The position numbers and the translations under genes are program-made. A stretch of 64,000 nt of DNA. Source: Patescibacteria group bacterium (lineage in GTDB: Bacteria; Patescibacteriota; Gracilibacteria; UBA1369; PNNO01). Numbering within the stretch: position 1 is the stretch's first letter; each line of letters starts with the position of its first letter. Shown here in pieces: positions 2,524 through 58,440 of this stretch. The stretch spans positions 35 to 64,034 of the forward strand of contig JBHPJE010000007.1 of the NCBI GenBank assembly GCA_042568205.1. Reading direction: 5' to 3'. Under the pieces are notes generated by a model. That model was not told the DNA's origin. It ran no database searches and saw only the letters and a list, made by a program, of their open reading frames with translations.

Positions 2524-4256
2524 CTCTGTTTATCAATGTAATTCATAACATCTTCAAAATAGAATGGTCGGCCATCATATCTTAAGAATTTAGATTTAAA
2601 TTTCTTTCCAGTTTCAGCTTCGATCAATCTTCCGAGCTGTCCGTGAAGATTTCCTTCAATTAAATGCACATTTTTATTCTCTTTAAAGAATTTTAAAGCA
2701 GCTGTTTTGTTGATTGGCCAAACAAAATCAAAGTGCATGTAGTTTACTTTCTTTTTACTTGCCTTGATTGCATCTCTCATTGCATTAATCGAACTTCCCC
2801 AACCAATAAATGAAATATCTGCACCTTTTTTTACACCAAATACACGAGGTGCTGGCAAATTCTTTTTAATTGTTTCTGCTTTTCTAACATGACGTTTATG
2901 AATCATCTCTAAAACAGGTTTTATTTCTTCAGTTAAAGTTCCATCTGGTTCGTGTTCGTCAGAATTCGCATGATAGTGCGCTTTACTAGCTCCTGGAACC
3001 CATCTCGGAGACACACCTGACTTTGTAATTTTAAATCTATCTGCAGGAGTTAATTTTGCTAATTCAGATTTATTCGTAATTAATCCTCGTTTTATTGGTA
3101 TTTTTTTATGTTTAAATAGATCAACTGTCTGATGACAGTCGTAAACATGTTTTGAACTTAAAACCATTGTTGGTGTTTGATATTCTTCCGACCAATTAAA
3201 TGCATGTTGTATTAATTCATATGAGCTTTCCGGGTCTGAACATGCAAGAACTATTCTTGGAAATTCTCCATGACCTGAATTTATTACTAAATCTAAATCA
3301 CCCTGACAAGTCCAAGTAGGCAAACCGGTTCCAGGTCCTGGTCTTTGACCAACAATGATAACTAGTGGAGTTTCAGTAACTCCAGCGCAAGAAACTGTTT
3401 CTGTCATTAAATCAAATCCACCACCTGAAGTTGCAGTCATTGCTCGGCATCCAACATGCATTGAACCCATTACTAATTGTGCTGCAGTAATTTCATCTTC
3501 TGCTTGTTTCACAATCACTCCAGTTTCATGAGAAGTGTTTGCTATATAAGTTAAAATCCCACTTGAAGGACTCATTGGATAAGCATAATAAGCACGCATC
3601 CCAGCCTGAATTGCTCCAAGTGAAATTGCTTTAGATCCATCAATTAATATCTTTTTAAGTTTCGTTGAATTCTTCTTAAGTTTCATTACTGGAATATCCT
3701 TCAAATGTTTTTTAGGATTAAATCCATATCTAATACATTTAAGATCAATTGCTAATAGTTTTGGTTTAGATTTGAATTTTTTTCTTACATCATCTTCAAC
3801 TTCTTTAAGATCGAATCCTAGCATCTTCCATAATAGTCCCATTAAAACCATATTCACCATTAAACTGCTTCCACCTAGGCTGTAAGCGATTTCTCTAGCA
3901 GGTAAATAATAAATTTTCACACCTCTTGCTTTACATTTCTTAGCAAGTTCAGGAACCATTTGATGTTTTTCATATCCATGAATTAAAATTCCGCCTTTTT
4001 TAATATCATCAATGTACTCAACAAGACCATGACGATCTAAAGCCACACAAATATCAACTTTTTCACTCAGACTTCGAATTTCCTTTGTACTAAAATCAAT
4101 TTGAACATTTGAATATCCACCTTTAATCAGAGAAGGGAACTCACGATCAGAAACTACATAATATCCTAAATCTTTAAGAGCATTAGAAATTATCTGACCT
4201 ACACTAAGTAGTCCCATTCCACTTTCTCCTGCGATTTTTACAACTGTTCTATCCAT
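2520..4256 (-). CDS. 2-oxoacid:ferredoxin oxidoreductase, fused gamma-alpha subunit
   Basis: The 578-aa ORF has an N-terminal gamma-type domain (KIAGESGMGLLSVGQII). This is followed by an alpha domain with YYAYPMSPSS and TATSGGGFDLM. Confidence 0.85.
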   Translation of the reverse strand: MDRTVVKIAGESGMGLLSVGQIISNALKDLGYYVVSDREFPSLIKGGYSNVQIDFSTKEIRSLSEKVDICVALDRHGLVEYIDDIKKGGILIHGYEKHQMVPELAKKCKARGVKIYYLPAREIAYSLGGSSLMVNMVLMGLLWKMLGFDLKEVEDDVRKKFKSKPKLLAIDLKCIRYGFNPKKHLKDIPVMKLKKNSTKLKKILIDGSKAISLGAIQAGMRAYYAYPMSPSSGILTYIANTSHETGVIVKQAEDEITAAQLVMGSMHVGCRAMTATSGGGFDLMTETVSCAGVTETPLVIIVGQRPGPGTGLPTWTCQGDLDLVINSGHGEFPRIVLACSDPESSYELIQHAFNWSEEYQTPTMVLSSKHVYDCHQTVDLFKHKKIPIKRGLITNKSELAKLTPADRFKITKSGVSPRWVPGASKAHYHANSDEHEPDGTLTEEIKPVLEMIHKRHVRKAETIKKNLPAPRVFGVKKGADISFIGWGSSINAMRDAIKASKKKVNYMHFDFVWPINKTAALKFFKENKNVHLIEGNLHGQLGRLIEAETGKKFKSKFLRYDGRPFYFEDVMNYIDKQR

Positions 4257-4697
4257 TTATTTAAGTAGTTTAGATAATTTTGTAGCCCAATTTTTCACTG
4301 TAGTGTTAAGGTGAGGAACCGGAGATTTAACAATTCGTAAAGCAGTAGTTAAAACTTCTCCGTGTTTTTCTTTAATCGAATTTTCTAAAAGTTTTGCTGA
4401 CTCAACAACATACTCAACATTGTATTTTGGATCTCCTAAACCAATGGCCGCACATTTTTTTCCTTTCAATGACTTCAAATAGTACATAAATTTCAGCATG
4501 TGTTCTTGTAAGAGTCCCTGACCATATGTTGAAGAAGCAAAAATAATATATTTATATTTTGTAAGATCAGATTCTTTTGTTGATTCTGCTCGTTGAACTT
4601 TAACTGTATGTTTTGTCGATAAAACCTCAGCAACTTTGTCAGTTACAAGTTCGGTGTTACCTCCTGTGCTTCCAAAAATAATTAGAACTGAAGACAT
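4257..4697 (-). CDS. short-chain flavodoxin
   Basis: The 146-aa ORF has the N-terminal FMN phosphate-binding loop VLIIFGSTGGNTE. Its stop codon directly abuts the oxidoreductase alpha start (TAAATG at 4254-4259). Confidence 0.8.
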   Translation of the reverse strand: MSSVLIIFGSTGGNTELVTDKVAEVLSTKHTVKVQRAESTKESDLTKYKYIIFASSTYGQGLLQEHMLKFMYYLKSLKGKKCAAIGLGDPKYNVEYVVESAKLLENSIKEKHGEVLTTALRIVKSPVPHLNTTVKNWATKLSKLLK

Positions 4698-4847: not shown

Positions 4848-5420
4848 ATGGGATGTCACGATTCTGAAGGAGAATACTGTGGAGCCGGCGGATGTTGTTC
4901 AAAACTCCAAATAGGTCACCCTGCACCAAACTTTAAAATGGAAGGGTATTTTAGAGGAGAAAAAAAGCATTACCACTTAGAAGACTTTAAAGGGAAGTGG
5001 ACTGTTTTATTTTTCTACCCTTTGGATTTTACATTTGTATGTCCAACTGAGTTAATAGAGCTCAGCAAAAAACACAAGGACTTCGAAAATGAAAATGCAC
5101 AAGTTTTAGGAGTAAGTGTTGATTCAGTTTACTCTCACGAAGCATGGGCGAAAGATATCGGTGATTTAAACTATCCATTATTAAGCGACATGACTAAACA
5201 AGTTAGTTATGACTACAATGTTTTGATCCCAGAAGATGGGATTAGTTTAAGAGGAGCTTTCATTATTGATCCTGATGGAATTCTAAAAGCTTACATGGTA
5301 AATGATATTACAATCGGTCGAAATATCGATGAATTAGTAAGATTGATTAAAGCCTTCCAAACTGGAGATCTTTGTCCGGTTGGATGGAACGCAGGTGATA
5401 AGACACTTGGTAAAGCATAA
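4848..5420 (+). CDS. ahpC: typical 2-Cys peroxiredoxin (AhpC/Prx1 family) with a Cys-rich N-terminal extension
   Basis: The peroxidatic motif is FYPLDFTFVCPTE and the resolving Cys lies in GDLCPVGW. I chose the ATG at 4848 (MGCHDSEGEYCGAGGCCSK...). The ORF-track start at 4800 would add an implausible leader that overlaps the operator. Confidence 0.9.
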   Translation: MGCHDSEGEYCGAGGCCSKLQIGHPAPNFKMEGYFRGEKKHYHLEDFKGKWTVLFFYPLDFTFVCPTELIELSKKHKDFENENAQVLGVSVDSVYSHEAWAKDIGDLNYPLLSDMTKQVSYDYNVLIPEDGISLRGAFIIDPDGILKAYMVNDITIGRNIDELVRLIKAFQTGDLCPVGWNAGDKTLGKA

Positions 5421-6099: not shown

Positions 6100-6705
6100 A
6101 TGAGCAAAGAACAGGAACTTACAGGAAAACTAATAATAATTGCTGGACCTTCAGGAGTAGGCAAGGGGACTGTAATATCTCACTTAAAGGAACTTTATCC
6201 GGATTGGGAATTCCCAATATCCGCTACTACAAGGGAACCGCGAGAAGGAGAAGAAGATGGAATTGTATATCATTTTGTTGAAAGGTCTGAATTTGAAAGA
6301 ATGATTGAGGACGGGGAGTTATTAGAATATGCAGTAGTTCATCAGGAAGAATATTATGGAACCTTAAAAGCACCAATCATTGAAGCGCTTAAACAAGGCA
6401 AAATCGTAATTCGTGAAGTTGATATGCAAGGATTGGAATCAATTCAGGAAGTAATTCCAAAAGCGAATTTAGTATCGATTTTCTTAACAGTTCCAAATAA
6501 ACAGGATTTAATCGATAGAATTCAAAATAGAGGGAGTTTACCAGCTGAAGAAATTAAAAGGCGTATGGAGAGCGCTGAGAAGGAATTCGAAAAAGGCGGA
6601 GAAATAAGCGATTATCAGGTGCCAAGCTTAACAAATCAAATTGCAAAGTGTGTTAGCGATGTTGAAAAAGTCATTCTAGACGAAACTAAATTTATTGGGG
6701 TGTAG
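6100..6705 (+). CDS. gmk: guanylate kinase
   Basis: The 201-aa ORF has the P-loop GPSGVGKGT and the motif ATTREPREGEEDGIVYHFV. Confidence 0.93.
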   Translation: MSKEQELTGKLIIIAGPSGVGKGTVISHLKELYPDWEFPISATTREPREGEEDGIVYHFVERSEFERMIEDGELLEYAVVHQEEYYGTLKAPIIEALKQGKIVIREVDMQGLESIQEVIPKANLVSIFLTVPNKQDLIDRIQNRGSLPAEEIKRRMESAEKEFEKGGEISDYQVPSLTNQIAKCVSDVEKVILDETKFIGV

Positions 6706-6770
6706 CCAAGTGGTAAGGCAACGGGTTCTGGTCCCGTGACTCGGGGGTTCGAATCCCTCCACCCCAGCCA
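6696..6770 (+). tRNA. tRNA-Gln (anticodon CUG), CCA encoded
   Basis: It folds by hand as UGGGGUG UA GCC AAGUGGUAA GGC A ACGGG UUCUGGU CCCGU GACUC GGGGG UUCGAAU CCCUC CACCCCA G CCA. It has the U1-A72 pair and overall layout of E. coli tRNA-Gln. Confidence 0.9.
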
Positions 6771-6772
6771 AT

Positions 6773-6842
6773 GCTTAAGCATGCGTACGAGCGTAGCGAG
6801 TCGGATGATTAAGTACGACGGAGCGATAGCGGAGTGTGCGAA
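6773..6842 (+). repeat. GC-rich interspersed repeat, copy 2, immediately 3' of tRNA-Gln
   Basis: The core at 6773-6820 is 44/48 identical to the reverse complement of 2441-2488. GAGCG-N(1-2)-AGCG motifs occur at 6789-6800 and 6821-6832. Confidence 0.7.
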
Positions 6843-6869
6843 GTAATTAAATCGTTACTACGCTTTTTT
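6838..6869 (+). terminator. Rho-independent terminator after gmk and tRNA-Gln
   Basis: Stem gcgaagtaa (6838-6846) pairs with ttactacgc (6855-6863) with one mismatch. A T6 run follows at 6864-6869. Confidence 0.55.
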
Positions 6870-7024
6870 ATAGAATGACATGCATAATTAACACCCTACT
6901 TGCTAAAAGTTTGTTTTTGGTGTATTGTTATCTTTGCTTGTTAGGTTCGCATTTTCATCTTCGGGGAAAAACGGTGTATTTGTTTTCACTTTTGAGCAAT
7001 TGCCATATTTTTTAATATATATTT

Positions 7025-8008
7025 ATGCACTCCACGAAGAAAATCAACAAAAACATTGAAATTGTTGTAACGGGTATTGATGGATTGAACCTTATGTCAA
7101 AAAGAACTTGTAATATGATTTATGAAGTTCTAATAAAAAATTATACAAATGTTTGTATAACAAAGATAGAAAAAGAAATTGATTTAGAAGAATTAGTTAA
7201 AAGATCACCTGATTTAGTATTTTCAAGTATTAAATGTGTGAAATTTAAAGATAAAGATGGTAAGAAAACCAAGAGAATTTGGTTATCAGAATATTTAGAT
7301 AAATTTAATATTAAATACACTGGCTCTCCAAAGGAAGCTTTAAAATTAGATTTTGATAAAAGTAAGGCTAAGGAAATACTTCAAAAAGCAAATATTGATA
7401 CTTCTATATTTTTTATTGCTGTGCCTGATCAATTTTTAAAAAGCAAAGATTTGCCAATTCCATTCCCACTTTTTATCAAACCTTTATGTCAGGGTGGGGG
7501 AAAAGGAATTGATTTTGATTCTATAGTCAATGACTTCGAAAGTTATCAGAAAAAAGTTAAAGAAATTTTTGGACAAACTAAAACGCCTGCTTTAGTGGAA
7601 AAGTATTTAAGTGGGCGGGAATTTACAGTAGGAATAATTGGAAACGACTATAAAAATCTCACAGTAATGCCTATAGAGATAATTCCTGTTCCAAATTCTG
7701 CTCAAGAGAAAGTACGTGGCTCACTAGTAAAAAAAGCAGACACTGAAAAGCCTCTTTATATAAAAAACAAGAAGGTATGGAAGAATGTGTCTAAGCTAGC
7801 GGAAAATGCTTTTAAAGCTCTAGGAGCTCACGGTTATGGTCGAATTGATATAAGGATGGATGGAAAAGAAGTACCATATTTTCTTGAAGCAAATTTAATA
7901 CCAGGTTTGGATAGAAACTATGGCGACCTTCCACGGTCATGCAAAATAAATAATGTTATGACTTATGAAGCTATGATTTTAGAAATTGTTAATCTTGGAT
8001 TAGCATGA
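7025..8008 (+). CDS. ddl: D-alanine--D-alanine ligase family ATP-grasp enzyme
   Basis: The 327-aa ORF has an ATP-grasp core (PLFIKPLCQGGGKGI, VEKYLSGREFTVGIIG, GRIDIRMDG..YFLEANLIPGL). The N-terminal region is divergent from canonical Ddl, so the symbol is tentative. Confidence 0.65.
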   Translation: MHSTKKINKNIEIVVTGIDGLNLMSKRTCNMIYEVLIKNYTNVCITKIEKEIDLEELVKRSPDLVFSSIKCVKFKDKDGKKTKRIWLSEYLDKFNIKYTGSPKEALKLDFDKSKAKEILQKANIDTSIFFIAVPDQFLKSKDLPIPFPLFIKPLCQGGGKGIDFDSIVNDFESYQKKVKEIFGQTKTPALVEKYLSGREFTVGIIGNDYKNLTVMPIEIIPVPNSAQEKVRGSLVKKADTEKPLYIKNKKVWKNVSKLAENAFKALGAHGYGRIDIRMDGKEVPYFLEANLIPGLDRNYGDLPRSCKINNVMTYEAMILEIVNLGLA

Positions 8009-26034: not shown

Positions 26035-27462
26035 ATGTCCCACAAAGATCTATACAGAAATATTTTGTTACGCTTAAAACCAACATTTAAACTACCTTTA
26101 TTTAAAACTTGGTTTGCAGATACAGGAATAATTGAAAAAGGGGACGACTATATAGTAATTGGACTTCCAACTCCATTCGCAAAGCAATGGGTTTTAGATA
26201 AATATCATATTAAAGTTTTACAAGCTGCTCAGGAAGAAGATCCATCAATAAAAGAAGTACAATATAAAGTACATTCTGAATTTGCTAATGAAGATTCTCC
26301 TCATAAAGTAAATCTTGAAAGTATTTTAGGAACTGACGATATTAAACAGGTAAGAAAAGTAAGAAATAAAGATAATGAAGTTCATGTTGGTAAAAAAGGA
26401 TTGAAAAGCCGAAAATTAAGCATCAAACATACTTTAGACAACTTTGTGATTGGTAAAGATAACAAACTTGCTCATACTGCTTGTCTTGCTGTTTCAAATA
26501 TGCCAGGAGGTATTTATAATCCTTTATACATCTTCTCAGGTGTTGGGCAGGGTAAGACTCATCTTTTACAGGCGACAGGACGAGAGATCTTAAAGAATGA
26601 TCCAGATGCTCGAATTGTTTATATGACTGCAGAACAATTTACTAACGAAATTATTGAAGCTATTGGAAAAAGAAGAACTAAACAGTTTAAAGATAAATAT
26701 AGAACAGTTGATTGTTTCATTCTTGATGACATTCAATTTTTAGAGAATAAAGATATGAGTCAAATGGAATTCTTCCATACATTTAATGATTTATATGACT
26801 CTAATAAGCAGATTATCCTTTCATCTGATACTCCACCAAAAGATCTGAATGGATTTAAAGAAAGACTGATGGGTAGATTTGGAATGGGTACAGTTGTTGA
26901 AATTCTACCTTCTGATTATGAAACGCGCTTAGCAATTCTTAAACAAAGATGCTCTGATCTTCAAATGATAATTGATGATGATGTTTTAGAGTGTATTGCT
27001 TTCCATGTTGAAACTAATGTTAGAGATTTAGTTGGAGTTTTGATGCAAGTAATTTCACATTCTAATTTAAATGGGGCAGATCCTACAAAAGAGCTGGTTG
27101 CAACGATTTTAGAAACTCAACATCAGATTCAGGTTACACATAATGGTGTTTCAGTTGCTTCGATGAATGCAAAAGGTAAAACTATTCAGGAAATTATTGA
27201 TTCAGTTGCTCATTATTTTCATATTTCAAACGATGATCTGATTGGACCTCTTCGAAAAAAAGAAGTTATGATGCCTCGTCAAGTTTGTATGTACCTGATT
27301 AAAAGAGAGCTTGATCATTCATATGAAAAAATTGGTGAAGTTTTTGGTGGACGGAATCATTCAACAGTTTTACATGCTTTCAACACCATTTCTAGGAAGA
27401 TAAAAACAGACCCAAGACTTTTGCGTGATGTACAAGCCATAAAGCAAGGTCTTGGATTTTAA
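26035..27462 (+). CDS. dnaA: chromosomal replication initiator DnaA
   Basis: The 475-aa ORF has the AAA+ Walker A GVGQGKTHLL, DDIQFL and the C-terminal DNA-binding domain (GGRNHSTVLHA). Confidence 0.95.
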   Translation: MSHKDLYRNILLRLKPTFKLPLFKTWFADTGIIEKGDDYIVIGLPTPFAKQWVLDKYHIKVLQAAQEEDPSIKEVQYKVHSEFANEDSPHKVNLESILGTDDIKQVRKVRNKDNEVHVGKKGLKSRKLSIKHTLDNFVIGKDNKLAHTACLAVSNMPGGIYNPLYIFSGVGQGKTHLLQATGREILKNDPDARIVYMTAEQFTNEIIEAIGKRRTKQFKDKYRTVDCFILDDIQFLENKDMSQMEFFHTFNDLYDSNKQIILSSDTPPKDLNGFKERLMGRFGMGTVVEILPSDYETRLAILKQRCSDLQMIIDDDVLECIAFHVETNVRDLVGVLMQVISHSNLNGADPTKELVATILETQHQIQVTHNGVSVASMNAKGKTIQEIIDSVAHYFHISNDDLIGPLRKKEVMMPRQVCMYLIKRELDHSYEKIGEVFGGRNHSTVLHAFNTISRKIKTDPRLLRDVQAIKQGLGF

Positions 27463-31289: not shown

Positions 31290-32357
31290 ATGGAAAGAAA
31301 AAGACTTAATCTAATCCTTTATGGTGCCGCTGCATTATTAGTAATAATAGTGTTAGCAGTTTGGTTTACTGCATTTTCACTTCCAGTGGAGCCTGTTGAA
31401 GAAGATGTTGAAGTTACAGAAGAAACCGAGTCAGATTTACCTAAAATTGATAGTGCAAATGAATCTTTAATTGATGGATTGCCTATTAGAGAAGAAAAAG
31501 AGCAATCAGTTGCTGTGATTATTGAAAATCATACTGATGCTAGAAGGCAGCAGGCAGGTTTAGGAGATGCAAGTTTGGTTATTGAAGCAGAAGCAGAAGG
31601 TGGAATTACTCGCTTTTTAGCAATTTTCCCATATCAAAAAACTGAAAAAGTAGGACCAGTCAGATCTGCACGTCCTTATACTGTAAGATGGGCTGAAATG
31701 TTTGATAGTGCTTTTGTACATGCTGGAGGCAGTGACCTTGGATTTAGTACAATTTATAGTAGTGGGAGAATCTTAGATTTAGACGGGCTTGCTTTAGAAG
31801 GTGGTTTGAAATATTTCACCCGAGATCATCTTTATTATGCTCCTCATAATCTTTTTGCGAATTTGGTAGAGTTGCGAGAACTGGCTGAAGAAAGAGGTTG
31901 GGATAGTGAAGTGGAAGAGCCTGTATTTAAATTTGGATCTTCTTTAGATAACGGGGAGGTTATTGAAACAGCAGATACTGTGCGAATTTATTATCCTTGG
32001 CCTCAATATTACGTTCGATATGAATATGATTCAGAAGATAATGTGTATAAACGATATCAGGCTGGTGAAACTCATATTGATAAAAACACTGGAGATCAAA
32101 TTGCACCTTCTAACGTGGTTGTTATGATCACAAATTATTACCCTACAGATGAAGAAGGTCGTTTATATATGAAAACAGAAGGAAAAGGGGATATGTATCT
32201 ATTTAGAAATGGTAAAGTTTTCCCTGGAACATGGGAAAGATACACAACAAGCGATGTTTTAAAGTTTTATGCTGAAGATGGAGAAGAATTAAACTTCGAA
32301 AAAGGTCCAACCTGGATTTCAGTAGTAAATCAAACAGGTGGTATGCAATGGGAATAG
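31290..32357 (+). CDS. DUF3048-family secreted/anchored protein
   Basis: The ATG at 31290 gives MERKRLNLILYGAAALLV (TM helix). The family signature is AVIIENHTDARRQQAGLGDASLVIEAEAEGGITRFLAIF. The track start at 31134 lies in an alternate frame of the L25 tail. Confidence 0.8.
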   Translation: MERKRLNLILYGAAALLVIIVLAVWFTAFSLPVEPVEEDVEVTEETESDLPKIDSANESLIDGLPIREEKEQSVAVIIENHTDARRQQAGLGDASLVIEAEAEGGITRFLAIFPYQKTEKVGPVRSARPYTVRWAEMFDSAFVHAGGSDLGFSTIYSSGRILDLDGLALEGGLKYFTRDHLYYAPHNLFANLVELRELAEERGWDSEVEEPVFKFGSSLDNGEVIETADTVRIYYPWPQYYVRYEYDSEDNVYKRYQAGETHIDKNTGDQIAPSNVVVMITNYYPTDEEGRLYMKTEGKGDMYLFRNGKVFPGTWERYTTSDVLKFYAEDGEELNFEKGPTWISVVNQTGGMQWE

Positions 32358-32367
32358 TATTAAAGTA

Positions 32368-32596
32368 GCGCCAGGTCAGAACGCTATTGGTGTTCTGCCC
32401 GTGTTGTTTGCGTCGGTCGCGTCTCCCCTCGAGAGGGAGGCCCACTAACTGCCCAACCTTTGAAGCGCACGGTTGTGCACTTTTCCGCGACGCACAGCTT
32501 TTGTTGCACCTCACCATCACGGTAAGCATGCAACCCGTGGTGTGCGTACAAACGGGTACACGAGGCATTACACTAACAAACGAACTGACCTGGCGT
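32368..32596. ncRNA. 229-nt GC-rich structured element closed by a 12-bp helix (unclassified, strand uncertain)
   Basis: The closing helix pairs gcgccaggtcag (32368-32379) with ctgacctggcgt (32585-32596). Rod-like continuation pairs are ttggtgt/acactaa, tgcc/ggca, cgtgt/acacg and gtttg/caaac, with internal hairpins. By hand count, 32401-32460 is about 60% G+C. The G-U pairs favour the plus strand, but the promoter and flanking tRNA context favour the minus strand. Confidence 0.45.
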
Positions 32597-32670
32597 TAGG
32601 CGGTACCGGATTTGAACCGGTGTCCTTCGGGTTCCTAGCCCGACGAGCTACCAGACTGCTCCAACCGCCA
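32597..32670 (-). tRNA. tRNA-like gene with an initiator-type body and anticodon loop CUAGGAA (anticodon AGG), no encoded CCA
   Basis: The minus strand folds as UGGCGGU UG GAGC AGUCUGGUA GCUC G UCGGG CUAGGAA CCCGA AGGAC ACCGG UUCAAAU CCGGU ACCGCCU A. All stems are perfect except a U1-U72 mismatch. It has A11:U24 and three G:C pairs closing the anticodon stem, as in bacterial tRNA-fMet. Confidence 0.7.
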
Positions 32671-32828
32671 CTAACGGAGTCCAGAAGAACTCCTTGATGA
32701 ACTTGATCGAGAAAGGAGGAGCGACATCCCCACAATTAGGGATGCCCTTTTGCGCCACACCCGTGGCTTGCGGAACCCCAAACAACAACCGACCGATCTT
32801 GTTCACAAGAAATACTCTGAACTCCTAT

Positions 32829-32914
32829 TCGAGGCGAGAGGATTTGAACCTCCGACTTCTGGAGTAGTTAGATGATAATAACTCCAGTGCGCTACCAGAA
32901 TGCGCCACGCCTCG
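32829..32914 (-). tRNA. tRNA-like gene with a Pro-type body and a 12-nt-expanded anticodon arm, no encoded CCA
   Basis: The minus strand folds as CGAGGCG UG GCGC AUUCUGGUA GCGC A CUGGA GUUAUUAUCAUCUAACUAC UCCAG AAGUC GGAGG UUCAAAU CCUCU CGCCUCG A. Acceptor, D and T arms are canonical (C1:G72 and A73, as in bacterial tRNA-Pro). Between the 5-bp anticodon stem strands there are 19 nt instead of 7. Confidence 0.5.
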
Positions 32915-32966
32915 TATAGGTTTTTACACAATGAAAAAGAACAATGGTAAAGAACCATGGACGCTT

Positions 32967-32994
32967 ATTATAAGACTTCGCTTGCCAAAGTCAA
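32967..32994 (-). promoter_or_regulatory. consensus sigma70-type promoter driving the RNA island
   Basis: On the minus strand, TTGACT (32994-32989), a 16-nt spacer and TATAAT (32972-32967) lie 52 nt upstream of the 5' end of the tRNA-like gene at 32914. Confidence 0.55.
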
Positions 32995-33005
32995 GGAATA
33001 ATATT

Positions 33006-33293
33006 CTAATTAACTAATTCCTCTAATAATTGTCTCATTTCATGTTGTTTTAGCTCTTTTTCATGAGTCTTTTTTATTTGTAAAACTTTTTCTTCTTTGT
33101 TTTTGAAATCAAGGTTAACAATGACTTCGTCGCCAGGTTGAATTCCTTTAGGGAGCCTTTCCTCTGGCCAAAAGAAGACATCTCCATCATGCATTTCTTC
33201 TTCATTATTAAAAGAGCCGCAGAAGACGAACTCAGCGAGTCCGTCCTCTACGGTAATTAATTTTGCTTCTTTTAATTCGTTACTTTCAGTCAT
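33006..33293 (-). CDS. small hypothetical protein (95 aa, possibly DUF3006-like)
   Basis: The ORF lies immediately downstream of hppA. The N-terminal beta-rich region followed by a charged helical tail only loosely resembles DUF3006. Confidence 0.45.
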   Translation of the reverse strand: MTESNELKEAKLITVEDGLAEFVFCGSFNNEEEMHDGDVFFWPEERLPKGIQPGDEVIVNLDFKNKEEKVLQIKKTHEKELKQHEMRQLLEELVN

Positions 33294-52365: not shown

Positions 52366-55300
52366 TTATAAATTTCCTGTACCTTCAGTTTGAGGACCTT
52401 GAACAGCTGTATCAGGTTGTGGATTTTGTGGAGTTCCACCTCCTGTTGTTTGATCTTGAGTAGGAGCTCTATGTTGAGTAGGAGTTTTGTGTGGTGTTTC
52501 TCTTCTTGGTGGGGTTGGAGTCTTTCTTCTTTTAAATTTATGTCCTGAGTAAATTCCAGCGGTAAATTGACCATAAGCTTTCTTTTCTGTTCTACCAACT
52601 CTGATATTTACATCAGCTCCAGCACCAAATAATCTTCCTCGTTTCACCCCTTTAAGAGTGATTCCGATTCTTTGATGAACAGCTACTGTTCCATTTCCAC
52701 ATTTTAAGTATGGACCAGCATAGATTTTAGTTTCAGCTACATGGAATATGTATTTATTATCGAATGTATATGTTGATTCTCCATTTAACTGGGCGTTTCG
52801 GATTCCAAGAACAATTGTCTTGAAGTCGTTAAATGCAGCTGCGTGAGTTTTTAATACTGTTTCTAAATTCTTTCCATTTAGATTTTGAATTATCTTTGTT
52901 AATCCTTTAAATTTTGGAACTCCAAGTATTGATAATAATGGTGAAACACCATTTCTATCGTACATTGAAAGTAAAAGTTGAGATAATTCAGATTCTAAGA
53001 ATTTCTTCTTAACACTTGTTTTTTCAAGATTCTTAGTTGGAAGAGGAGACATCATTCTTAATATAAGATTTGCTGCTGCTCTTTCATTTGCATCCGGAGA
53101 ATTTACATTAAGCCTGGTTGGTTTAATCATTTTTAATGTATCTTTGAATGCCTTATTGTCAGTATCTGAACCAAATGCTGTAGGCATTGATTGTAAGCTT
53201 CCGAATCTATGTGTATATGAACCATATTTAATACCTGCCTTCAAAGGAAGACTCTTTTTACTTTTTAGGAATTTTTGTAATTGTTCATGATTTTGCGGCA
53301 TACAAAGTAAAAGATAGTTTGCTATCCCATTAACTGAAGCTCCTTTATATTTTTTTCTAATTTCTTTCCATTGATCTCTATTATTTTCAATGAATTTTCT
53401 AATAAATCTCTTCATATATCTCATAAATAATCTGTTCCTAACTTGTAATCTTCGAGTGATTACTTTTGGATATTTTTTATTATGATCAAGAAGTTTCGTG
53501 AAACTCTTATCTAATAAATAAGAATAAATAAGATTTTTTTCTTGTTCATTCAAGGATGCAAGTTTCGTGCCTTTCGTATAAATGCCGTTTTGCTTTGCAT
53601 ATTGTTTATATCTTGCAGCAATTGTTCTAAACCATGTTGTTTTAAATTTATTTTCTCCATCTGGTGTTTTTAATTTTCCAACACCAATGTTGAAAGGTCT
53701 TCTGAATTTTTTATCAGCATAAATTAAATCACCAAATTTCTTTAACTGTAATTTTTTAGTTCGAACACGTTCAATGTTTCTATATTTCATTGCATCATGT
53801 AAGTCAGTAGTCATTTTTTGAGCCTGAGGCCTTGTATAATCAGCTTTAAGGTCAATAAATGATTCATGATTTCTTTTGCTGTTTTTATATTCAGCTAAAG
53901 TCATTACATTTGAAGGTCTTTTTGTCATAACAGGTCTTCCATTTACAAGTTTTGTATCGTAGTGTTGCCTTCCTAATGCTTCATTTTTTACCCTTTGATA
54001 TTTTTCACCTTTGAATTTGTATAACGACCAAGGTGAAGAATTTCTTATAGTTCCATTATCAAGATCCGGATTTGCTTTGAATGCAATTACATGCAAATTC
54101 ATTGCTCCTCTTTTTTGGAATGGATATCTATAAGTACTTCTTGTTACATATAAATCTTTAACTAAATTAGCTGAAAGTAAGAACCTGTTATTTGCTCTAT
54201 CAAGAATCAATCCTCTCGCTTTCATTGCAGGATCCATTAAAACTTCAACATTACTATCCATAGTTTGTAATGGTGTTAAAGCAAGTAACCATCCTTTTGG
54301 ATTTCTTGGATCTTTTACTTTTTCAACGTGAATGTTTAATTTAGAAAAAGTTTTTTTAGCTAATTCAAAAGTACTTTGGAAAGTATCAACTTGTCCTTTT
54401 TTCTTTGGTTTTTTGTTTGGACCTTCTTGACCACTTCCTCGACTATATTTACCATCAGCAATATTTGCACTTTTTTCACCAGTTCTTCTTGCAACACCTG
54501 ATCTTCCTAAATTTGAATCAAAATATAAAATTCCACTCGTAGCTTCAATTACATATGGTGCAATTTTAAAATTTCTTAATCCTTGTTTTCTTAGTTTTTG
54601 TCTTAATTCAAATTCAACAGCTTTTCGTTGCATGTAATCTGAATATTTTGGATGCGCATGCCTAACTACATAAGTAACTTCAGTTCCTGGTATTTTAAAA
54701 GTGATATATGCACCAACACCAACTGAAGCAAGTTTTCCTGATTTCGCATCAATACCTAGAAATGCACCAGCACCAATTCCAAGCAGCCAAGGTACTTTCA
54801 TCTTTCTTTTTGCATATTCAACCCAATCTTTTCTGGCTTCTTTATAAAGATCAACTATAGTTGCATTGTCTTTTATTTTTGCCTTCGTTTTAATTTTCTT
54901 CATTACTCTACCAAAAGTCGGATGATTAAGAATTAATGAAGCTGCTTTATCAATTTTTCCATCATCAATGGCTCTATCAATATCTTTGATATTTCTTAAT
55001 TCCATACTTTCTTTAACTTGACGTTTTTCTGATCTATCTCTGTCCCATATGCCACCAACAGCACCACCTACACCTACAGTCTTTCCTTTATAATCAGCTC
55101 CTGCACTTATACTGAAATACAAATTATAATCTGTTTTTCCAATAGGCATTTCAAGCCCTATTGCAGCACCTGCAAAAGTAGCTGTAGCACCTACTGTATA
55201 TCTGAAACTTAATTTTTTACCTGCTTTAATTGCACCGTTAATTCCTAAAAATGGAATACATCTTTCTTGAATTGTTCTTCCTTGCTGACCAAATACACCA

Positions 55301-58300
55301 AATGTAAAATATTGTGGCTGTCCATTAATTTCAAATAATTTTACTGAAGCAGTCATCCCGGCACCAAATCTTTGAGTTCTTACGTTTGCAGGAATTGTAC
55401 CATTTGTAATACCAATAACAGCTAAACGAACTTTTTGTTCTACTGCTTTTAATAGATAAACAGGGCATCCATTTTTTAGTGCAGCTAATTGAGCTTTTCT
55501 TTCTAATGGTCTGGTTGAAAGATTTTTATTCATAACTTCTGACCATTTTTTAGATGTTTCAATTTTTCTACCTAACATAAATCCAACTCTAATTAACTTT
55601 AATAGAGCAGTTTTACCTTTTAATTGGTCTGGTTCAATGTTATTTAGTTTCAATGCCTTATATAGGACATCTAGTATTTCAACCTTATCAAGATTCAATA
55701 ATGAATTCATATCCATTCCAATTTTATTTTCAATTCCTAATTCTTTAACTAATTTTGGAATAACTTTATGAAAATTTGCATCAGTAGCATTCATTATTAC
55801 TGAAGTCAGTCCATATTCAATATAATCATTTGTTTTATTTAATACTTTTGTTGGATTAGGCTGATAAACTGTAGTTCCAGGAGCTCTGTGAGAAGTTTTT
55901 TCTAGCATATCCAGATAACCTCTATCCTGAGCCATGAATTTTTCAAATTCACTTGGATTAATAGTGATTTGACCTAAATGAGCCATTGTAATTTTTTTGC
56001 CTTTTTTCCAAACAGCTCTTCCATGCCATAATCCTTGCCACCAGTTAAAGTTTTCTTTAACCACTGAACCAGTAGGTGTAAAGATAGATCTAATAAATAA
56101 TCTGGCTTTCATCCCCGCGCTTAATGAAGCTCTAACTTTTTCCCATTTTTTAAAGTCTGCTTTAGCATGTTCTCCTTTAACCCAAAGTCTAGCTTTTGTT
56201 TGTTGGATTGTAGCTAATGCTTCCAGCCATCCAAATTTTGGTAACTTAACTAATACATATTTATTATCATTAACTTTTTTAAGACATTTTTCAGCAAGAA
56301 GTTTTCTTAGACCAAATGCCATGAATAATAATTTTAATCCGCCATTTGATTTAAGCATTTCACCCGGATTAAAATCAGGGCTTTCTTGTTTATAGAATTG
56401 TTCTTTAATTTTTGCCTGCATTAAATTACTAGCACCAATATCTATAGATGTAGGTGCGTTATCTTCTTTATGAAGAAGTGAACCTAAACTATAATAATTT
56501 AGCCCTTGTGGTTCTTTTTCAATTTGTTCTACACCAGCAAGCATTGGTCTATACACATCAGTCTTTGTTTCTCGATGGACCTTAAATGCTTCAGGTTTTT
56601 TAAATTCCTCTAAAGCATCAAATATTCGTGCAATACCTAAAGCAATAGTTCTTAGTTTTCTCCATTCTTTAACAATTGCTTTTTCTTCTTTCCCAATAGG
56701 ATTATCTTCGTTGATATGTCTAACCATCATCTGCTTTTCAACTCGATAATAATCTTTAATAAATTGTTTATATCCACCCTCATATAATTCTCTTTTACCA
56801 TCTAAGCTAACTTTGAAAAAGTCTTCTGCATATAATCTTGAATTCAATTGTTTTTGAATAATTTCCTGAATATAATGTCTTTTTTGTGTAGGTGACATCG
56901 GATGAAAAGGAGGATTTTCTAAAATTGGGCCAATATATCTTCCTACTTTTTTCCAGATATCAACGTTTTTAAAATGTTCATCATTTCTTAATTGTTCTGG
57001 TACGTCATATTGAGCATTTTGAAAGATATAACCGTAATAAAAATCGTCAATTAAACTATCCGCTGCTTCTCTTTTTCTTTCTCTTTCTCTCTCTGCAGCT
57101 GTCTCTTTTAATTTAATATGATCAGGGAATGAGATTTTATAAGTAACCGCAAGTTCTTTTAATTTTTTATCAATTTCTATTAACAATTTATTTTTATCAG
57201 CTTCTTTTTCAAGACCGTAAGCTTTGTTAATTATTAGTTGAATTGAATTCAAGGTTTTTCCATATTCGGTTTTATTTTTTATATTTTCTGTTTCTTCGAT
57301 AAAGTAATCTAATCTTTTTTGATTCAATATAATCTTTTCATCTGCTGTTCCCTGATTTGTTTCAGTAGCCACATTCAGCTTAGCTGCGCTTTTAGCTTTT
57401 GGTTTTTTAGTAATTGGCTTTGCTGCATCAGGATTATATGCACCAGCTTCATATTTAATATTGCTAATTACAGTATTATGAAAAATTCTTACTCTTTGAG
57501 GTCTTTTATTTCCTTTTAGAGATGATTTAATATAAAAAGTTCCTGAACCTTTATGGTATACAGCCTCTTCTTTAAACTTTCTTCCACCTGGGCTTACACC
57601 ACTTACCGTGAAGCTAATATGAATATTTCCACCTTGCAGTTTACTTAAATCAAACAGGTCATGAATTCTAACTGTCTTTTCAGCTTTTCTATCAATTCTA
57701 CCTTTGGGAGTTAAAAATTTAACAATGTAACCCTTCTTGTGTTTGTGTAAGTACTTTTTATTTGTAACTAATTGATCAACTGCTTTTGTTGGGTCCTCTT
57801 TTAGCATTTTTTGTACATTCTTTTTCAATACTTTTTTCTTTGCTTTTGTTCTTTTTACAACTGCTTCTTTCTTTTTACCCAGTTCTGCTCTTAGTTTTCT
57901 TATATCTTCAATGATTGCTCTACGAATATCTAAACTGTTCGAAGCTTCTTTCAAATCAACTTTCCAAAATGTTCCTTTTTTATTATGAAATGTTAATTTA
58001 CCACCTTCATCCAAAGTGACAGTACATGGTTTGTTATCTCCAACTTTTTTTGCATTTTTCCCAATAAGATAATTAAGATCTTTAAATGCTGTTTTAAAGA
58101 ATCTTAAAAATGCTTTAGATTTTTTTACGTGTTTAGGTAATTTTTTAAAACTTCTTGAAAGTAAACCTAATGCAATTTTTCCTGAATCTAGTCCTCTTCC
58201 TTTAATTTCAAAAGTTGATTTGTTTTTTATGTATTTGTCGAATCCTTCTTCATAACCTTCTAATTCATCATTTATTTGTTTTATGGTTTGTTTCTTTCTT

Positions 58301-58440
58301 TCAAGTTTATCTTCTTTTTGTTCCCTAGGCGATTGAATTAGAACACCTAAAGGTTTTTTAAAGACATGTTTTGATTCGCCAGTTAAAAGATTTTTACTAG
58401 CGAAATAATTCAGTAAATGAATGTAGTTTTTGTTTATCAT
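52366..58440 (-). CDS. 2,024-aa lysine-rich giant protein of unknown function
   Basis: This is an uninterrupted 6.1-kb ORF with no N-terminal signal peptide or TM helix. It is very Lys/Arg-rich and has three Gly/Ala-rich glycine-zipper-like segments. Its Pro/Thr-rich tail ends in QTEGTGNL. Confidence 0.7.
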   Translation of the reverse strand: MINKNYIHLLNYFASKNLLTGESKHVFKKPLGVLIQSPREQKEDKLERKKQTIKQINDELEGYEEGFDKYIKNKSTFEIKGRGLDSGKIALGLLSRSFKKLPKHVKKSKAFLRFFKTAFKDLNYLIGKNAKKVGDNKPCTVTLDEGGKLTFHNKKGTFWKVDLKEASNSLDIRRAIIEDIRKLRAELGKKKEAVVKRTKAKKKVLKKNVQKMLKEDPTKAVDQLVTNKKYLHKHKKGYIVKFLTPKGRIDRKAEKTVRIHDLFDLSKLQGGNIHISFTVSGVSPGGRKFKEEAVYHKGSGTFYIKSSLKGNKRPQRVRIFHNTVISNIKYEAGAYNPDAAKPITKKPKAKSAAKLNVATETNQGTADEKIILNQKRLDYFIEETENIKNKTEYGKTLNSIQLIINKAYGLEKEADKNKLLIEIDKKLKELAVTYKISFPDHIKLKETAAERERERKREAADSLIDDFYYGYIFQNAQYDVPEQLRNDEHFKNVDIWKKVGRYIGPILENPPFHPMSPTQKRHYIQEIIQKQLNSRLYAEDFFKVSLDGKRELYEGGYKQFIKDYYRVEKQMMVRHINEDNPIGKEEKAIVKEWRKLRTIALGIARIFDALEEFKKPEAFKVHRETKTDVYRPMLAGVEQIEKEPQGLNYYSLGSLLHKEDNAPTSIDIGASNLMQAKIKEQFYKQESPDFNPGEMLKSNGGLKLLFMAFGLRKLLAEKCLKKVNDNKYVLVKLPKFGWLEALATIQQTKARLWVKGEHAKADFKKWEKVRASLSAGMKARLFIRSIFTPTGSVVKENFNWWQGLWHGRAVWKKGKKITMAHLGQITINPSEFEKFMAQDRGYLDMLEKTSHRAPGTTVYQPNPTKVLNKTNDYIEYGLTSVIMNATDANFHKVIPKLVKELGIENKIGMDMNSLLNLDKVEILDVLYKALKLNNIEPDQLKGKTALLKLIRVGFMLGRKIETSKKWSEVMNKNLSTRPLERKAQLAALKNGCPVYLLKAVEQKVRLAVIGITNGTIPANVRTQRFGAGMTASVKLFEINGQPQYFTFGVFGQQGRTIQERCIPFLGINGAIKAGKKLSFRYTVGATATFAGAAIGLEMPIGKTDYNLYFSISAGADYKGKTVGVGGAVGGIWDRDRSEKRQVKESMELRNIKDIDRAIDDGKIDKAASLILNHPTFGRVMKKIKTKAKIKDNATIVDLYKEARKDWVEYAKRKMKVPWLLGIGAGAFLGIDAKSGKLASVGVGAYITFKIPGTEVTYVVRHAHPKYSDYMQRKAVEFELRQKLRKQGLRNFKIAPYVIEATSGILYFDSNLGRSGVARRTGEKSANIADGKYSRGSGQEGPNKKPKKKGQVDTFQSTFELAKKTFSKLNIHVEKVKDPRNPKGWLLALTPLQTMDSNVEVLMDPAMKARGLILDRANNRFLLSANLVKDLYVTRSTYRYPFQKRGAMNLHVIAFKANPDLDNGTIRNSSPWSLYKFKGEKYQRVKNEALGRQHYDTKLVNGRPVMTKRPSNVMTLAEYKNSKRNHESFIDLKADYTRPQAQKMTTDLHDAMKYRNIERVRTKKLQLKKFGDLIYADKKFRRPFNIGVGKLKTPDGENKFKTTWFRTIAARYKQYAKQNGIYTKGTKLASLNEQEKNLIYSYLLDKSFTKLLDHNKKYPKVITRRLQVRNRLFMRYMKRFIRKFIENNRDQWKEIRKKYKGASVNGIANYLLLCMPQNHEQLQKFLKSKKSLPLKAGIKYGSYTHRFGSLQSMPTAFGSDTDNKAFKDTLKMIKPTRLNVNSPDANERAAANLILRMMSPLPTKNLEKTSVKKKFLESELSQLLLSMYDRNGVSPLLSILGVPKFKGLTKIIQNLNGKNLETVLKTHAAAFNDFKTIVLGIRNAQLNGESTYTFDNKYIFHVAETKIYAGPYLKCGNGTVAVHQRIGITLKGVKRGRLFGAGADVNIRVGRTEKKAYGQFTAGIYSGHKFKRRKTPTPPRRETPHKTPTQHRAPTQDQTTGGGTPQNPQPDTAVQGPQTEGTGNL

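Follow-up and report, generated by a model that had tools for sequence, protein, structure and literature searches.

A conserved structured-RNA locus with tRNA-like modules and a promoter of its own in a subclade of Patescibacteria

A GC-rich island in the genome of a Patescibacteria group bacterium (contig JBHPJE010000007.1, positions 35 to 64,034; this stretch of 64,000 nucleotides [nt] is here called the window) represents a real, conserved, and previously uncatalogued family of structured RNA with a narrow distribution. The island is present at the same site in eight loci, the window and seven syntenic relatives, between a gene for a DUF3048 protein and a small open reading frame (ORF). 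All eight share one anatomy: a promoter, a leader, one or two units, and a U-rich tail by the DUF3048 stop codon (Table 1). Each unit consists of a tRNA-like element and, 1 to 5 nt further on, an RNA bounded by a long-range helix; there are two units in the window, L081, and L095 and one in L084, L087, L088, L096, and L097. The helix-closed RNAs of the window are here called elements A and B. The original prediction, made from the sequence of the window, was that of a multi-part structured-RNA locus with its own promoter, and this is borne out by the recurrence of the parts in eight loci and by compensatory changes in the closing helix and in the stems of the tRNA-like elements. Recurrence of such an architecture in seven syntenic loci is more than chance. 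We tentatively favor the explanation that the island is a selected polycistronic noncoding RNA operon in which the tRNA-like modules would serve as cleavage sites for RNase P and RNase Z.

Table 1. Features of the RNA island and their positions in the window
Feature	Positions	Strand	Description
Island	32368-32994	minus	G+C 52.0%; promoter, two tRNA-model matches, elements A and B
Sigma-70-type promoter	32994-32967	minus	-35 TTGACT (32994-32989), 16-nt spacer, -10 TATAAT (32972-32967); 11/12 matches
Leader	32915-32966	minus	Palindrome/hairpin, boxA-like and boxC-like elements, CCUAU just before tRNA-like element 1
Leader palindrome/hairpin	32958-32944	minus	AUGGUUCUUUACCAU
Leader boxA-like element	32943-32932	minus	UGUUCUUUUUCA
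Leader boxC-like element	32931-32924	minus	UUGUGUAA
tRNA-like element 1, class P	32914-32829	minus	ARAGORN and Rfam RF00005, 53.6 bits
Element A	32671-32828	minus	158-nt RNA closed by helix GGAGUUCAGAG (32825-32815) / UUCUGGACUCC (32686-32676)
tRNA-like element 2, initiator-like class	32670-32597	minus	ARAGORN and Rfam RF00005, 61.3 bits
Element B	32369-32595	minus	227-nt RNA with perfect 11-bp closing helix CGCCAGGUCAG (32595-32585) / CUGACCUGGCG (32379-32369)
U-rich tail, weak	32358-32368	minus	CUACUUUAAUA; after the B helix, abuts the DUF3048 stop codon (32355-32357)

The syntenic loci were gathered via graded homologues of the DUF3048 protein, which carry the labels Peregrinibacteria or Patescibacteria; the window is therefore taken as part of a chromosome from a Peregrinibacteria-like bacterium of the Candidate Phyla Radiation (CPR). 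The island is present in the relatives whose DUF3048 proteins are 84% (L081), 77% (L095), 71% (L084), 70% (L087), 69% (L096 and L097), and 67% (L088) identical to that of the window. In L098 (67%), L091/L092 (57%), and L093 (54%), the flanking genes abut and the island is absent, and L090 (61%) has an unrelated A+T-rich insert instead. At this site, the island is confined to one subclade and is not universally required. The L090 insert (positions 4080 to 4691) is ~600 nt long and contains a called 91-amino-acid ORF and no tRNA-like element; judging from this locus, the intergenic site, which lies between convergent genes, seems to be insertion-prone. BLAST of each module against the window and 99 loci gave no further copies outside the syntenic islands, and none of 185,579 species genomes contained a 25-mer of tRNA-like element 2 that was searched for as an exact string. 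The leader pattern retrieved a single, already known contig from a metagenome collection and nothing from viral contigs, and the phage and plasmid collections yielded a match to the initiator-like tRNA body only. No population variants were seen, the duplicate contigs being identical.

The jump in G+C content reported in the original prediction for this A+T-rich genome is genuine, at 52.0% for the island compared with 33.1% for the window, and the accompanying hand count of 37/60 for positions 32401 to 32460 is exact. The island, with 56% G+C in its core, is the sole G+C peak of such size in the 64 kb. Across the gap region of each locus, the G+C content is 42% to 52%, i.e., 10 to 20 points over that of the genome, despite synonymous sites being near saturation between the more distant loci. 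The hairpin-rich spacer described as ~158 nt long, our element A, is indeed 158 nt long and contains the three stems named for it (CAUCCC/GGGAUG, GGAGU/ACUCC, and GCCAC/GUGGC); its predicted fold has a free energy of -64.4 kcal/mol (z = -5.3 versus shuffles). The corresponding z-scores are -5.4 for element B and -7.4 for the whole transcript, and the predicted whole-island fold is made up of modules, without long-range pairing from one unit to another. We also agree that there is no credible ORF. Mechanical ORFs of 41 to 121 amino acids overlap the island on both strands, but they cannot be conserved because the length and content of the island differ between relatives. In L095, an ORF of 190 amino acids with no Pfam match is annotated across the RNA island on the opposite strand (positions 3636 to 4208, plus strand); the high G+C content of the RNA probably led to this call, which is unlikely to be a real gene.

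No known family explains the non-tRNA part of the island in the Rfam search that had been proposed as a check. At gathering thresholds, only tRNA was found in the window; at E values of ≤10, only tRNA was found in the island and nothing in A alone or B alone; and at E values of ≤1, the seven relatives gave only tRNA. The original prediction could fit neither RNase P RNA, signal recognition particle (SRP) RNA, transfer-messenger RNA (tmRNA), nor 6S RNA to the island, and the models agree: none of the four matched the island or B at E values of ≤10, and ARAGORN found no tmRNA. We rejected these candidates also because the size is variable and four relatives have no island. One motif of B, CGGAAAAGUGC, is faintly like the conserved RNase P RNA sequence GGAAAGUCC. 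RNase P RNA was rejected here as well, since there is no model match, a local variable hairpin follows the motif, and the size is not conserved. RNase P RNAs of the CPR are reported to be diverged yet detectable by models at lowered thresholds (PMC8172020). A relic of 5S, 23S, or 16S rRNA was not recognized in A or B by Rfam at E values of ≤10, and local alignments with the Escherichia coli rrnH operon stayed within the range of shuffles; three of the best local matches lie near the 5S gene and were judged to be coincidental because the pairings differ.

Large ornate bacterial RNAs were considered as well. GOLLD, ROOL, and other such RNAs gave no Rfam model match, and the make-up of the island is modular and variable, so that the comparison with GOLLD and ROOL drawn in the original prediction stands as an analogy of neighborhood but not as membership. 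It seems improbable to us that the ~600-nt transcript is one large unprocessed RNA of the GOLLD, ROOL, or OLE type with the tRNA-like folds as its domains. The stability of the whole-island fold (z = -7.4) would suit such an RNA, as would the occurrence of large bacterial RNAs near tRNAs, to which the original prediction had pointed. However, not only is a large-RNA model match lacking, but the number of units, the identity of the tRNA-like elements, and the size of the interiors vary among close relatives, which is unfit for one three-dimensional architecture, and the modular fold lacks long-range pairs between the units.

Both tRNA-like genes were called by ARAGORN and by Rfam RF00005 where the original prediction had located them. 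Their cloverleaf is confirmed, but they are not ordinary tRNAs: the anticodon arms are abnormal, CCA is not encoded, and the elements are non-orthologous between close relatives. All 11 tRNA-like elements of the eight loci score above the Rfam tRNA threshold of 29 bits (37.5 to 61.3 bits; relatives, 37.5 to 58 bits), and all 11 have kept the T-loop sequence GGUUC(A/G)AAUCC. Among the five elements of class S, compensatory double changes are found in 6/7 acceptor pairs and 2/5 T-stem pairs. The anticodon arm behaves differently. Element 1 combines canonical acceptor, D, and T arms with an anticodon arm enlarged to 29 nt (a 7-bp stem plus a 15-nt loop region). Element 2 has a body with ~87% identity to bacterial initiator tRNAs, a U1xU72 mismatch, and an anticodon stem containing three G-C pairs, yet its anticodon is AGG. 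Of the 11 elements, it is also the only one whose anticodon arm has the canonical length of 17 nt; the remaining 10 arms are 15 to 42 nt long and have loops of 3 to 5 nt, loops of 8 nt (read by ARAGORN as four-base anticodons), or inserted hairpins. Over the 11 elements, we did not find a canonical anticodon arm in the full sense of a 5-bp stem and a 7-nt loop with U33, a purine at position 37, and an anticodon kept in orthologues, and CCA is encoded after none of them.

The genuine tRNA-Gln of the window (positions 6696 to 6770) ends in G-CCA. This tRNA-Gln(CTG), which with its trailer occupies positions 6696 to 6880 of the plus strand, starts within the end of an ORF (positions 6100 to 6705), and the trailer of ~100 nt ends in U6. 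A structured trailer is not a generic feature of tRNAs here, as judged from this one, which folds no better than shuffles (z = 0.19). General pairing of tRNA flanks was likewise rejected, since CCUAU/AUAGG is found around the first module only.

The bodies of the tRNA-like elements fall into four sequence classes, X, P, initiator-like, and S. Their order is X then P in L081, P then initiator-like in the window, and initiator-like then S in L095; the nearest relative of element 1 is the second tRNA-like element of L081 and not the first. These slots would fit differential loss from an older X-P-initiator-S array or an exchange of modules. As four classes occupy shifting slots among close relatives, any tRNA-shaped module seems to serve. 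Taken together, the sequences point to selection on the upper half of the tRNA shape and not on the decoding end.

Covariation across loci is also seen in the closing helix of element B. The element had been predicted to be closed by a helix and to be 229 nt long. Closure is confirmed by a perfect 11-bp helix, but a fixed size is not, as the counterparts range from ~60 to 300 nt. The collection of homologues and covariation check suggested earlier yielded the seven syntenic relatives and, across the seven loci that have the helix, 92% of cells paired, with double compensatory changes in 5 of the 11 pairs. The helix core CAGG/CCUG is invariant in these loci, and the compensatory changes (G-C to U-A, C-G to U-A, and G-C to A-U) lie on either side of it. 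None of 500 shuffles reached the observed covariation score, and shifted registers lose pairing. The closing helix of A is a recognizable variant of that of B; the A and B units therefore look like tandem paralogues.

Within B, the partly conserved motifs CCCGUUUGUACGCACA (positions 32556 to 32541) and CUGUGCGUCGCGGAAAAG (positions 32497 to 32480) pair with each other. Interiors of type I, found in the window, L081, L084, L095, and, loosely, L087, have in common the mutually pairing CCCGUUUGUACGCACA and GCCGUGCGUCGCGGAAGAG, and those of type II (L088, L096, and L097) have in common AGCCACCCAUAUGG. In L096, the tRNA-like module is followed by a plain 62-nt perfect hairpin. The 250-nt element of L084 has a basal stem into which the stem of this hairpin runs on, pointing to expansion at the apical loop. 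U5 to U6 directly follows the equivalent helix in L095, L097, and L088. No intrinsic terminator was called in a scan of the window, and the "loop" of 60 to 300 nt in most loci is far beyond that of a normal terminator. L084 has three more hairpins after its B-type element (positions 5082 to 5200, minus strand), none of which the window has; UCCUGGCCCGGGCCAGGA is a perfectly palindromic one, and GUGGUACUAGUACCAC, with UUUU after it, makes a canonical terminator. Over its first ~40 nt (positions 32585 to 32540), B looks like the 5' half of a tRNA-Asp that is encoded on a Peribacillus asahii plasmid (L100, positions 474 to 520). In the tRNA cluster of that plasmid, the tRNA-Asp comes directly after an initiator tRNA, as B comes after the initiator-like module. 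BLAST matches to this cluster ran on from the initiator-like module into B, but the statistics for a derivation of B from tRNA-Asp are weak: a shuffle test gave a p value of ~0.02, uncorrected, in a single test out of 11, and L081 did not reproduce it.

Identity rates between the window and L081 were compared with those at four-fold degenerate sites of the neighboring genes, which are 60% to 75% identical. The leader (80%) is better conserved than these sites, as is the 3' half of B (88%), and identity is 56% in the 5' half of B and 60% to 63% in the tRNA-like elements and A. Sequence turnover is thus near neutral in most of the island while structure and high G+C content are kept, indicating that selection acts mainly on the fold.

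These observations bear on whether the tRNA-like RNAs could themselves be the products, as non-decoding mimics, with A and B being stabilizing spacers and an overgrown terminator hairpin. As such mimics, they could, for instance, be carriers in nonribosomal transfer of aminoacyl groups, lure away enzymes or toxins that bind tRNA, or be structural partners. We consider this reading unlikely. It is true that structural selection is clearest on the upper half of the tRNA shape, that the U run directly after the closing helix in three loci is terminator-like, and that L096 has a mere hairpin after its tRNA-like module. Some modules also look like type II (serine-like) tRNAs, and type II serine tRNAs are charged by SerRS without reading of the anticodon. 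However, the tRNA-like elements belong to four unrelated classes whose positions are swapped between close relatives, and they have neither a common acceptor identity nor a G3:U70 pair, so that no single charging or binding specificity is kept. In addition, the 3' half of B is the best-conserved segment in the comparison with L081, which is unexpected for a mere spacer, and a specific 12-nt block is kept in A.

The minus-strand promoter recognized in the original prediction, TTGACT-16-TATAAT, matches the consensus at 11/12 positions. Its layout is the same in all eight loci, with a -10 element TATAAT (6/6), a 16-nt spacer, and a conserved ATGG located 8 nt after the -10 element. Six loci have TTGAC(T/C) as the -35 element. 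The other two, L088 and L097, have TTGAAG, which is located within the final codons (…LLEELVN) of the small ORF upstream, and the promoter there overlaps coding sequence.

Downstream of the promoter, the leader is 45 to 55 nt long across the loci and reads AUGGUU-loop-UUUACCAU, (U/C)G(U/C)UCUUU…, (U/A)UG(U/C)GUAA, and A(C/U)CUA; the hairpin AUGGU/ACCAU and the boxC-like UGUGU are present in all loci. The order hairpin, G(U/C)UCUUU, and UGUGU is the boxB/boxA/boxC order of rRNA operon leaders, including that of E. coli rrnH, which reads UGCUCUUUAACAA and then UGUGUGGG. The published boxA consensus is GYTCTTTAANA (PMC5725501), a functional boxA of a CRISPR array is GTTCTTTAAAA, and boxA elements are reported to promote the transcription of long noncoding RNAs (PMC7862264). 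By hand count, the eight leaders match the consensus at about 8 to 10 of 11 positions (7 to 10 when counted for the core G(U/C)UCUUU), with 10/11 in L084 (GUUCUUUACUA), 9/11 in the window (GUUCUUUUUCA), and 8/11 in L097 (GCUCAUUUUUA), counts that refer to the published consensus. As a lead reasoned from these motifs, the transcript may use Nus-factor antitermination.

The leader can also be read as a near-leaderless mini-ORF of 11 to 14 codons, whose ATG is located 8 nt after the -10 element and whose stop reads GUG-UAA. It is very improbable, in our view, that the island is a cis-regulatory device in which this mini-ORF, or the palindrome as an operator, controls read-through antisense into the DUF3048 gene. 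The distance from the -10 element to the ATG is fixed in 8/8 loci, and the distance from ATG to stop (TAA or TAG) is 36, 36, 36, 36, 36, 39, or 45 nt in 7/8 loci. The RNA ends within ~10 nt of the DUF3048 stop codon as well, and there is no strong terminator in the window. However, the mini-ORF of the window is out of frame (35 nt), and where indels shift the frame (L081 and L088), the palindrome is conserved and the peptide is not, so that the coding reading of the leader was ranked low. The mini-ORF also lacks the TTAA motif that is common upstream of genes here (23/42; see below), and ~550 nt of conserved structure would be left without a role.

Homologous A elements are found in L081 and L095. 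Automatic alignment of A mis-registers the interior, and only the closing helix is reliable in the consensus fold. The sole perfectly conserved block of the interior is CCUCCUUUCUCG (positions 32719 to 32708; UCACCUCCUUUCU in L081 and CUCCUUUCU in L095), which is unpaired in the predicted fold and lies 3' of a hairpin (positions 32745 to 32724). This CCUCCUUUCU block, single-stranded by prediction, resembles the 3' tail of 16S rRNA, the likeness extending over 10 to 13 nt. That tail has a CCUCC core (PMC6288834). The block may have been inherited as a leftover, or it may be a mimic or regulate selectively.

Shine-Dalgarno motifs appear to be absent from the window: GGAG, GAGG, or AGGA was found at -18 to -6 in 0/42 long ORFs. 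Instead, about half of the 42 ORFs have a TTAA whose first letter is at -16 to -13, and 23/42 have one within -20 to -10 (shuffled mean, 9.3; maximum, 19), so that ribosomes of this CPR lineage may bind by another signal. Given the lack of Shine-Dalgarno motifs, the block of A would be no general sponge for ribosome-binding sites.

The rRNA-like traits of the leader and of A could instead mark a decaying relic of a redundant tRNA or rRNA operon from which the large RNAs were deleted and which has no present function. Besides the rrn-like leader, the long-range closing helices resemble pre-rRNA processing stems, a tRNA-like element lies between A and B as tRNA does in an rRNA spacer, and CCUCCUUUCU follows a hairpin in A much as the 16S tail follows helix 45. 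The presence or absence of the island among relatives and the orders X-P, P-initiator-like, and initiator-like-S fit loss from an ancestral array, and the 5' end of B is weakly like tRNA-Asp (p of ~0.02 before correction for 11 tests). We nevertheless regard a relic as quite unlikely. Neither A nor B is similar to rRNA or 5S RNA in Rfam at E values of ≤10 or in the E. coli rRNA operon alignments, which stayed within shuffles; the promoter is kept in 8/8 loci; and the changes in the stems are compensatory and not random. In a pseudogene, loss of the promoter and a drift toward A+T would be expected, whereas the G+C content here is 10 to 20 points over that of the genome though neutral sites are near saturation. 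The damage is also limited to the anticodon arms and not spread over the tRNA body.

According to the polycistronic operon model that we favor, the near-consensus sigma-70 promoter would drive a single untranslated transcript, and the boxB/boxA/boxC-like leader would let RNA polymerase read through ~600 nt of GC-rich hairpins. The body would be an array of units, each with a tRNA-like element and then a helix-closed RNA, and the tRNA-like elements would be processing punctuation and not decoders. RNase P, RNase Z, and the CCA-adding enzyme recognize the acceptor stem, the T arm, and the D/T elbow of tRNAs, and RNase Z acts on precursors lacking CCA. Since the acceptor stem, T arm, and elbow are kept, a usable anticodon arm is lost, and no CCA is encoded, a processing role for the tRNA-like elements is proposed. 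In this scheme, RNase P would cleave each element at its 5' end and RNase Z on the 3' side of the discriminator base, which would yield tRNA-like RNAs and set A and B free as stable hairpin RNAs, each with defined ends. The sequences show the anatomy of the locus, its conservation, the selection on its structure, and its absence from known families; transcription, antitermination, and processing are inferred, as is the choice of pieces that would be functional products.

Several points weigh against this model. Processing by RNase P and RNase Z is purely a proposal. The boxA match is partial, and the leader is also readable as a palindromic operator or a mini-ORF. A and B have fast-evolving interiors, and the length of B varies from ~60 to 300 nt, which is unusual for an RNA with a fixed job. 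Four syntenic relatives have no island, so that it is dispensable or placed elsewhere in those genomes. Finally, there are only eight loci, and these are related; the covariation statistics are weak evidence by themselves.

In a more elaborate version of the model, the island would be the bacterial counterpart of a mode of RNA biogenesis, punctuated by tRNA-like elements, for which the known cases are MALAT1/mascRNA and the herpesvirus TMERs, and would combine it with antitermination in the style of rRNA leaders. Interchangeable tRNA copies with disabled anticodons would be retained solely as handles by which RNase P and RNase Z free hairpin RNAs that evolve fast, and A would display a free copy of the anti-Shine-Dalgarno tail of 16S rRNA. 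In this complete form, we think it doubtful. If it is true, A could act very selectively on a few mRNAs or on proteins that recognize the anti-Shine-Dalgarno tail sequence, because the genome appears to have no Shine-Dalgarno sites (0/42 genes).

The genes around the island are ordinary bacterial genes, namely, dnaA and the genes for a FecR-domain protein, YceG, YbaB, ribosomal protein L25, the DUF3048 protein, and H+-pyrophosphatase. The DUF3048 gene is convergent to the island, and an ORF of 95 amino acids and the H+-pyrophosphatase gene lie upstream on the same strand as the island. The dnaA gene (positions 26035 to 27462, plus strand; the L081 homologue matches Bac_DnaA) is ~5 kb away, which places the island near a probable replication origin region. 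The small ORF next to the island (positions 33006 to 33293, minus strand) belongs to a family of 91 to 102 amino acids with no Pfam match that invariably comes after the H+-pyrophosphatase gene, also in the island-free loci and in a distant "Gracilibacteria" contig (L001, positions 7157 to 7435). This ORF and its homologues represent a conserved small partner protein. The largest ORF of the window encodes 2,024 amino acids (positions 52366 to 58440, minus strand).

To our knowledge, almost nothing is known about the noncoding RNAs of the CPR beyond diverged housekeeping RNAs. The locus would add a new and experimentally tractable RNA family with a strong promoter, and its leader suggests that rRNA-type antitermination may be used outside rRNA. 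It also shows how an array turns over among close relatives, by module swapping, loop expansion, and loss. tRNA is used as a processing handle in the engineered tRNA-guide-RNA arrays of synthetic biology; if the operon model is true, the island would be a natural bacterial case of this, with the tRNA shape kept and the decoding function stripped. The significance is limited by the narrow distribution, in one subclade.

Among known systems, rRNA operons share many traits with the island: a strong promoter; a leader in which a hairpin is followed by boxes of the form G(Y)UCUUU and UGUGU; an untranslated structured transcript with tRNA-shaped modules between RNAs enclosed in long-range helices; and a block like the 16S tail, CCUCCUUUCU, after a hairpin, which in the island is part of element A. 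Unlike them, the island has no rRNA similarity, a tRNA-like module precedes its first enclosed RNA, and the enclosed RNAs are variable and 60 to 300 nt long. In MALAT1/mascRNA and in the TMERs of murine gammaherpesvirus 68, RNase P and/or RNase Z cuts at a tRNA-like fold and so sets the ends of the neighboring RNA. There, as in the island, a non-decoding tRNA-like fold abuts a structured noncoding RNA (the 1 to 5 nt of the island separating the discriminator base from the closing helix). Those systems, however, are eukaryotic or viral and are transcribed by polymerase II or III, whereas the island is bacterial, has a sigma-70 promoter, and would be cleaved according to our proposal; the neighboring RNAs are unrelated in sequence. 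GOLLD and ROOL are likewise GC-rich, ORF-free, and found near tRNAs, but the island matches no model of theirs, and its size, modularity, and rapid turnover do not fit. In the tRNA-like domain of tmRNA, the YrlA Y RNA, and the Bacillus cereus tRNA-Other, the upper half of tRNA is kept and the anticodon arm is replaced or extended, as in the island. The island gives no tmRNA or Y RNA model match, however, and its mimic is a complete cloverleaf that stands before a separate RNA and is not embedded in it. CRISPR arrays with boxA (PMC7862264 and PMC5725501) resemble the island in having a boxA-like element that leads a long untranslated structured transcript, but the island has no repeats, spacers, or cas genes, and its boxA-like match is partial. 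The arrangement is close in kind to that of known tRNA-linked noncoding RNAs, and it is the combination that is unusual, in which interchangeable anticodon-disabled tRNA copies are joined to an rRNA-like leader and to fast-evolving helix-closed RNAs.

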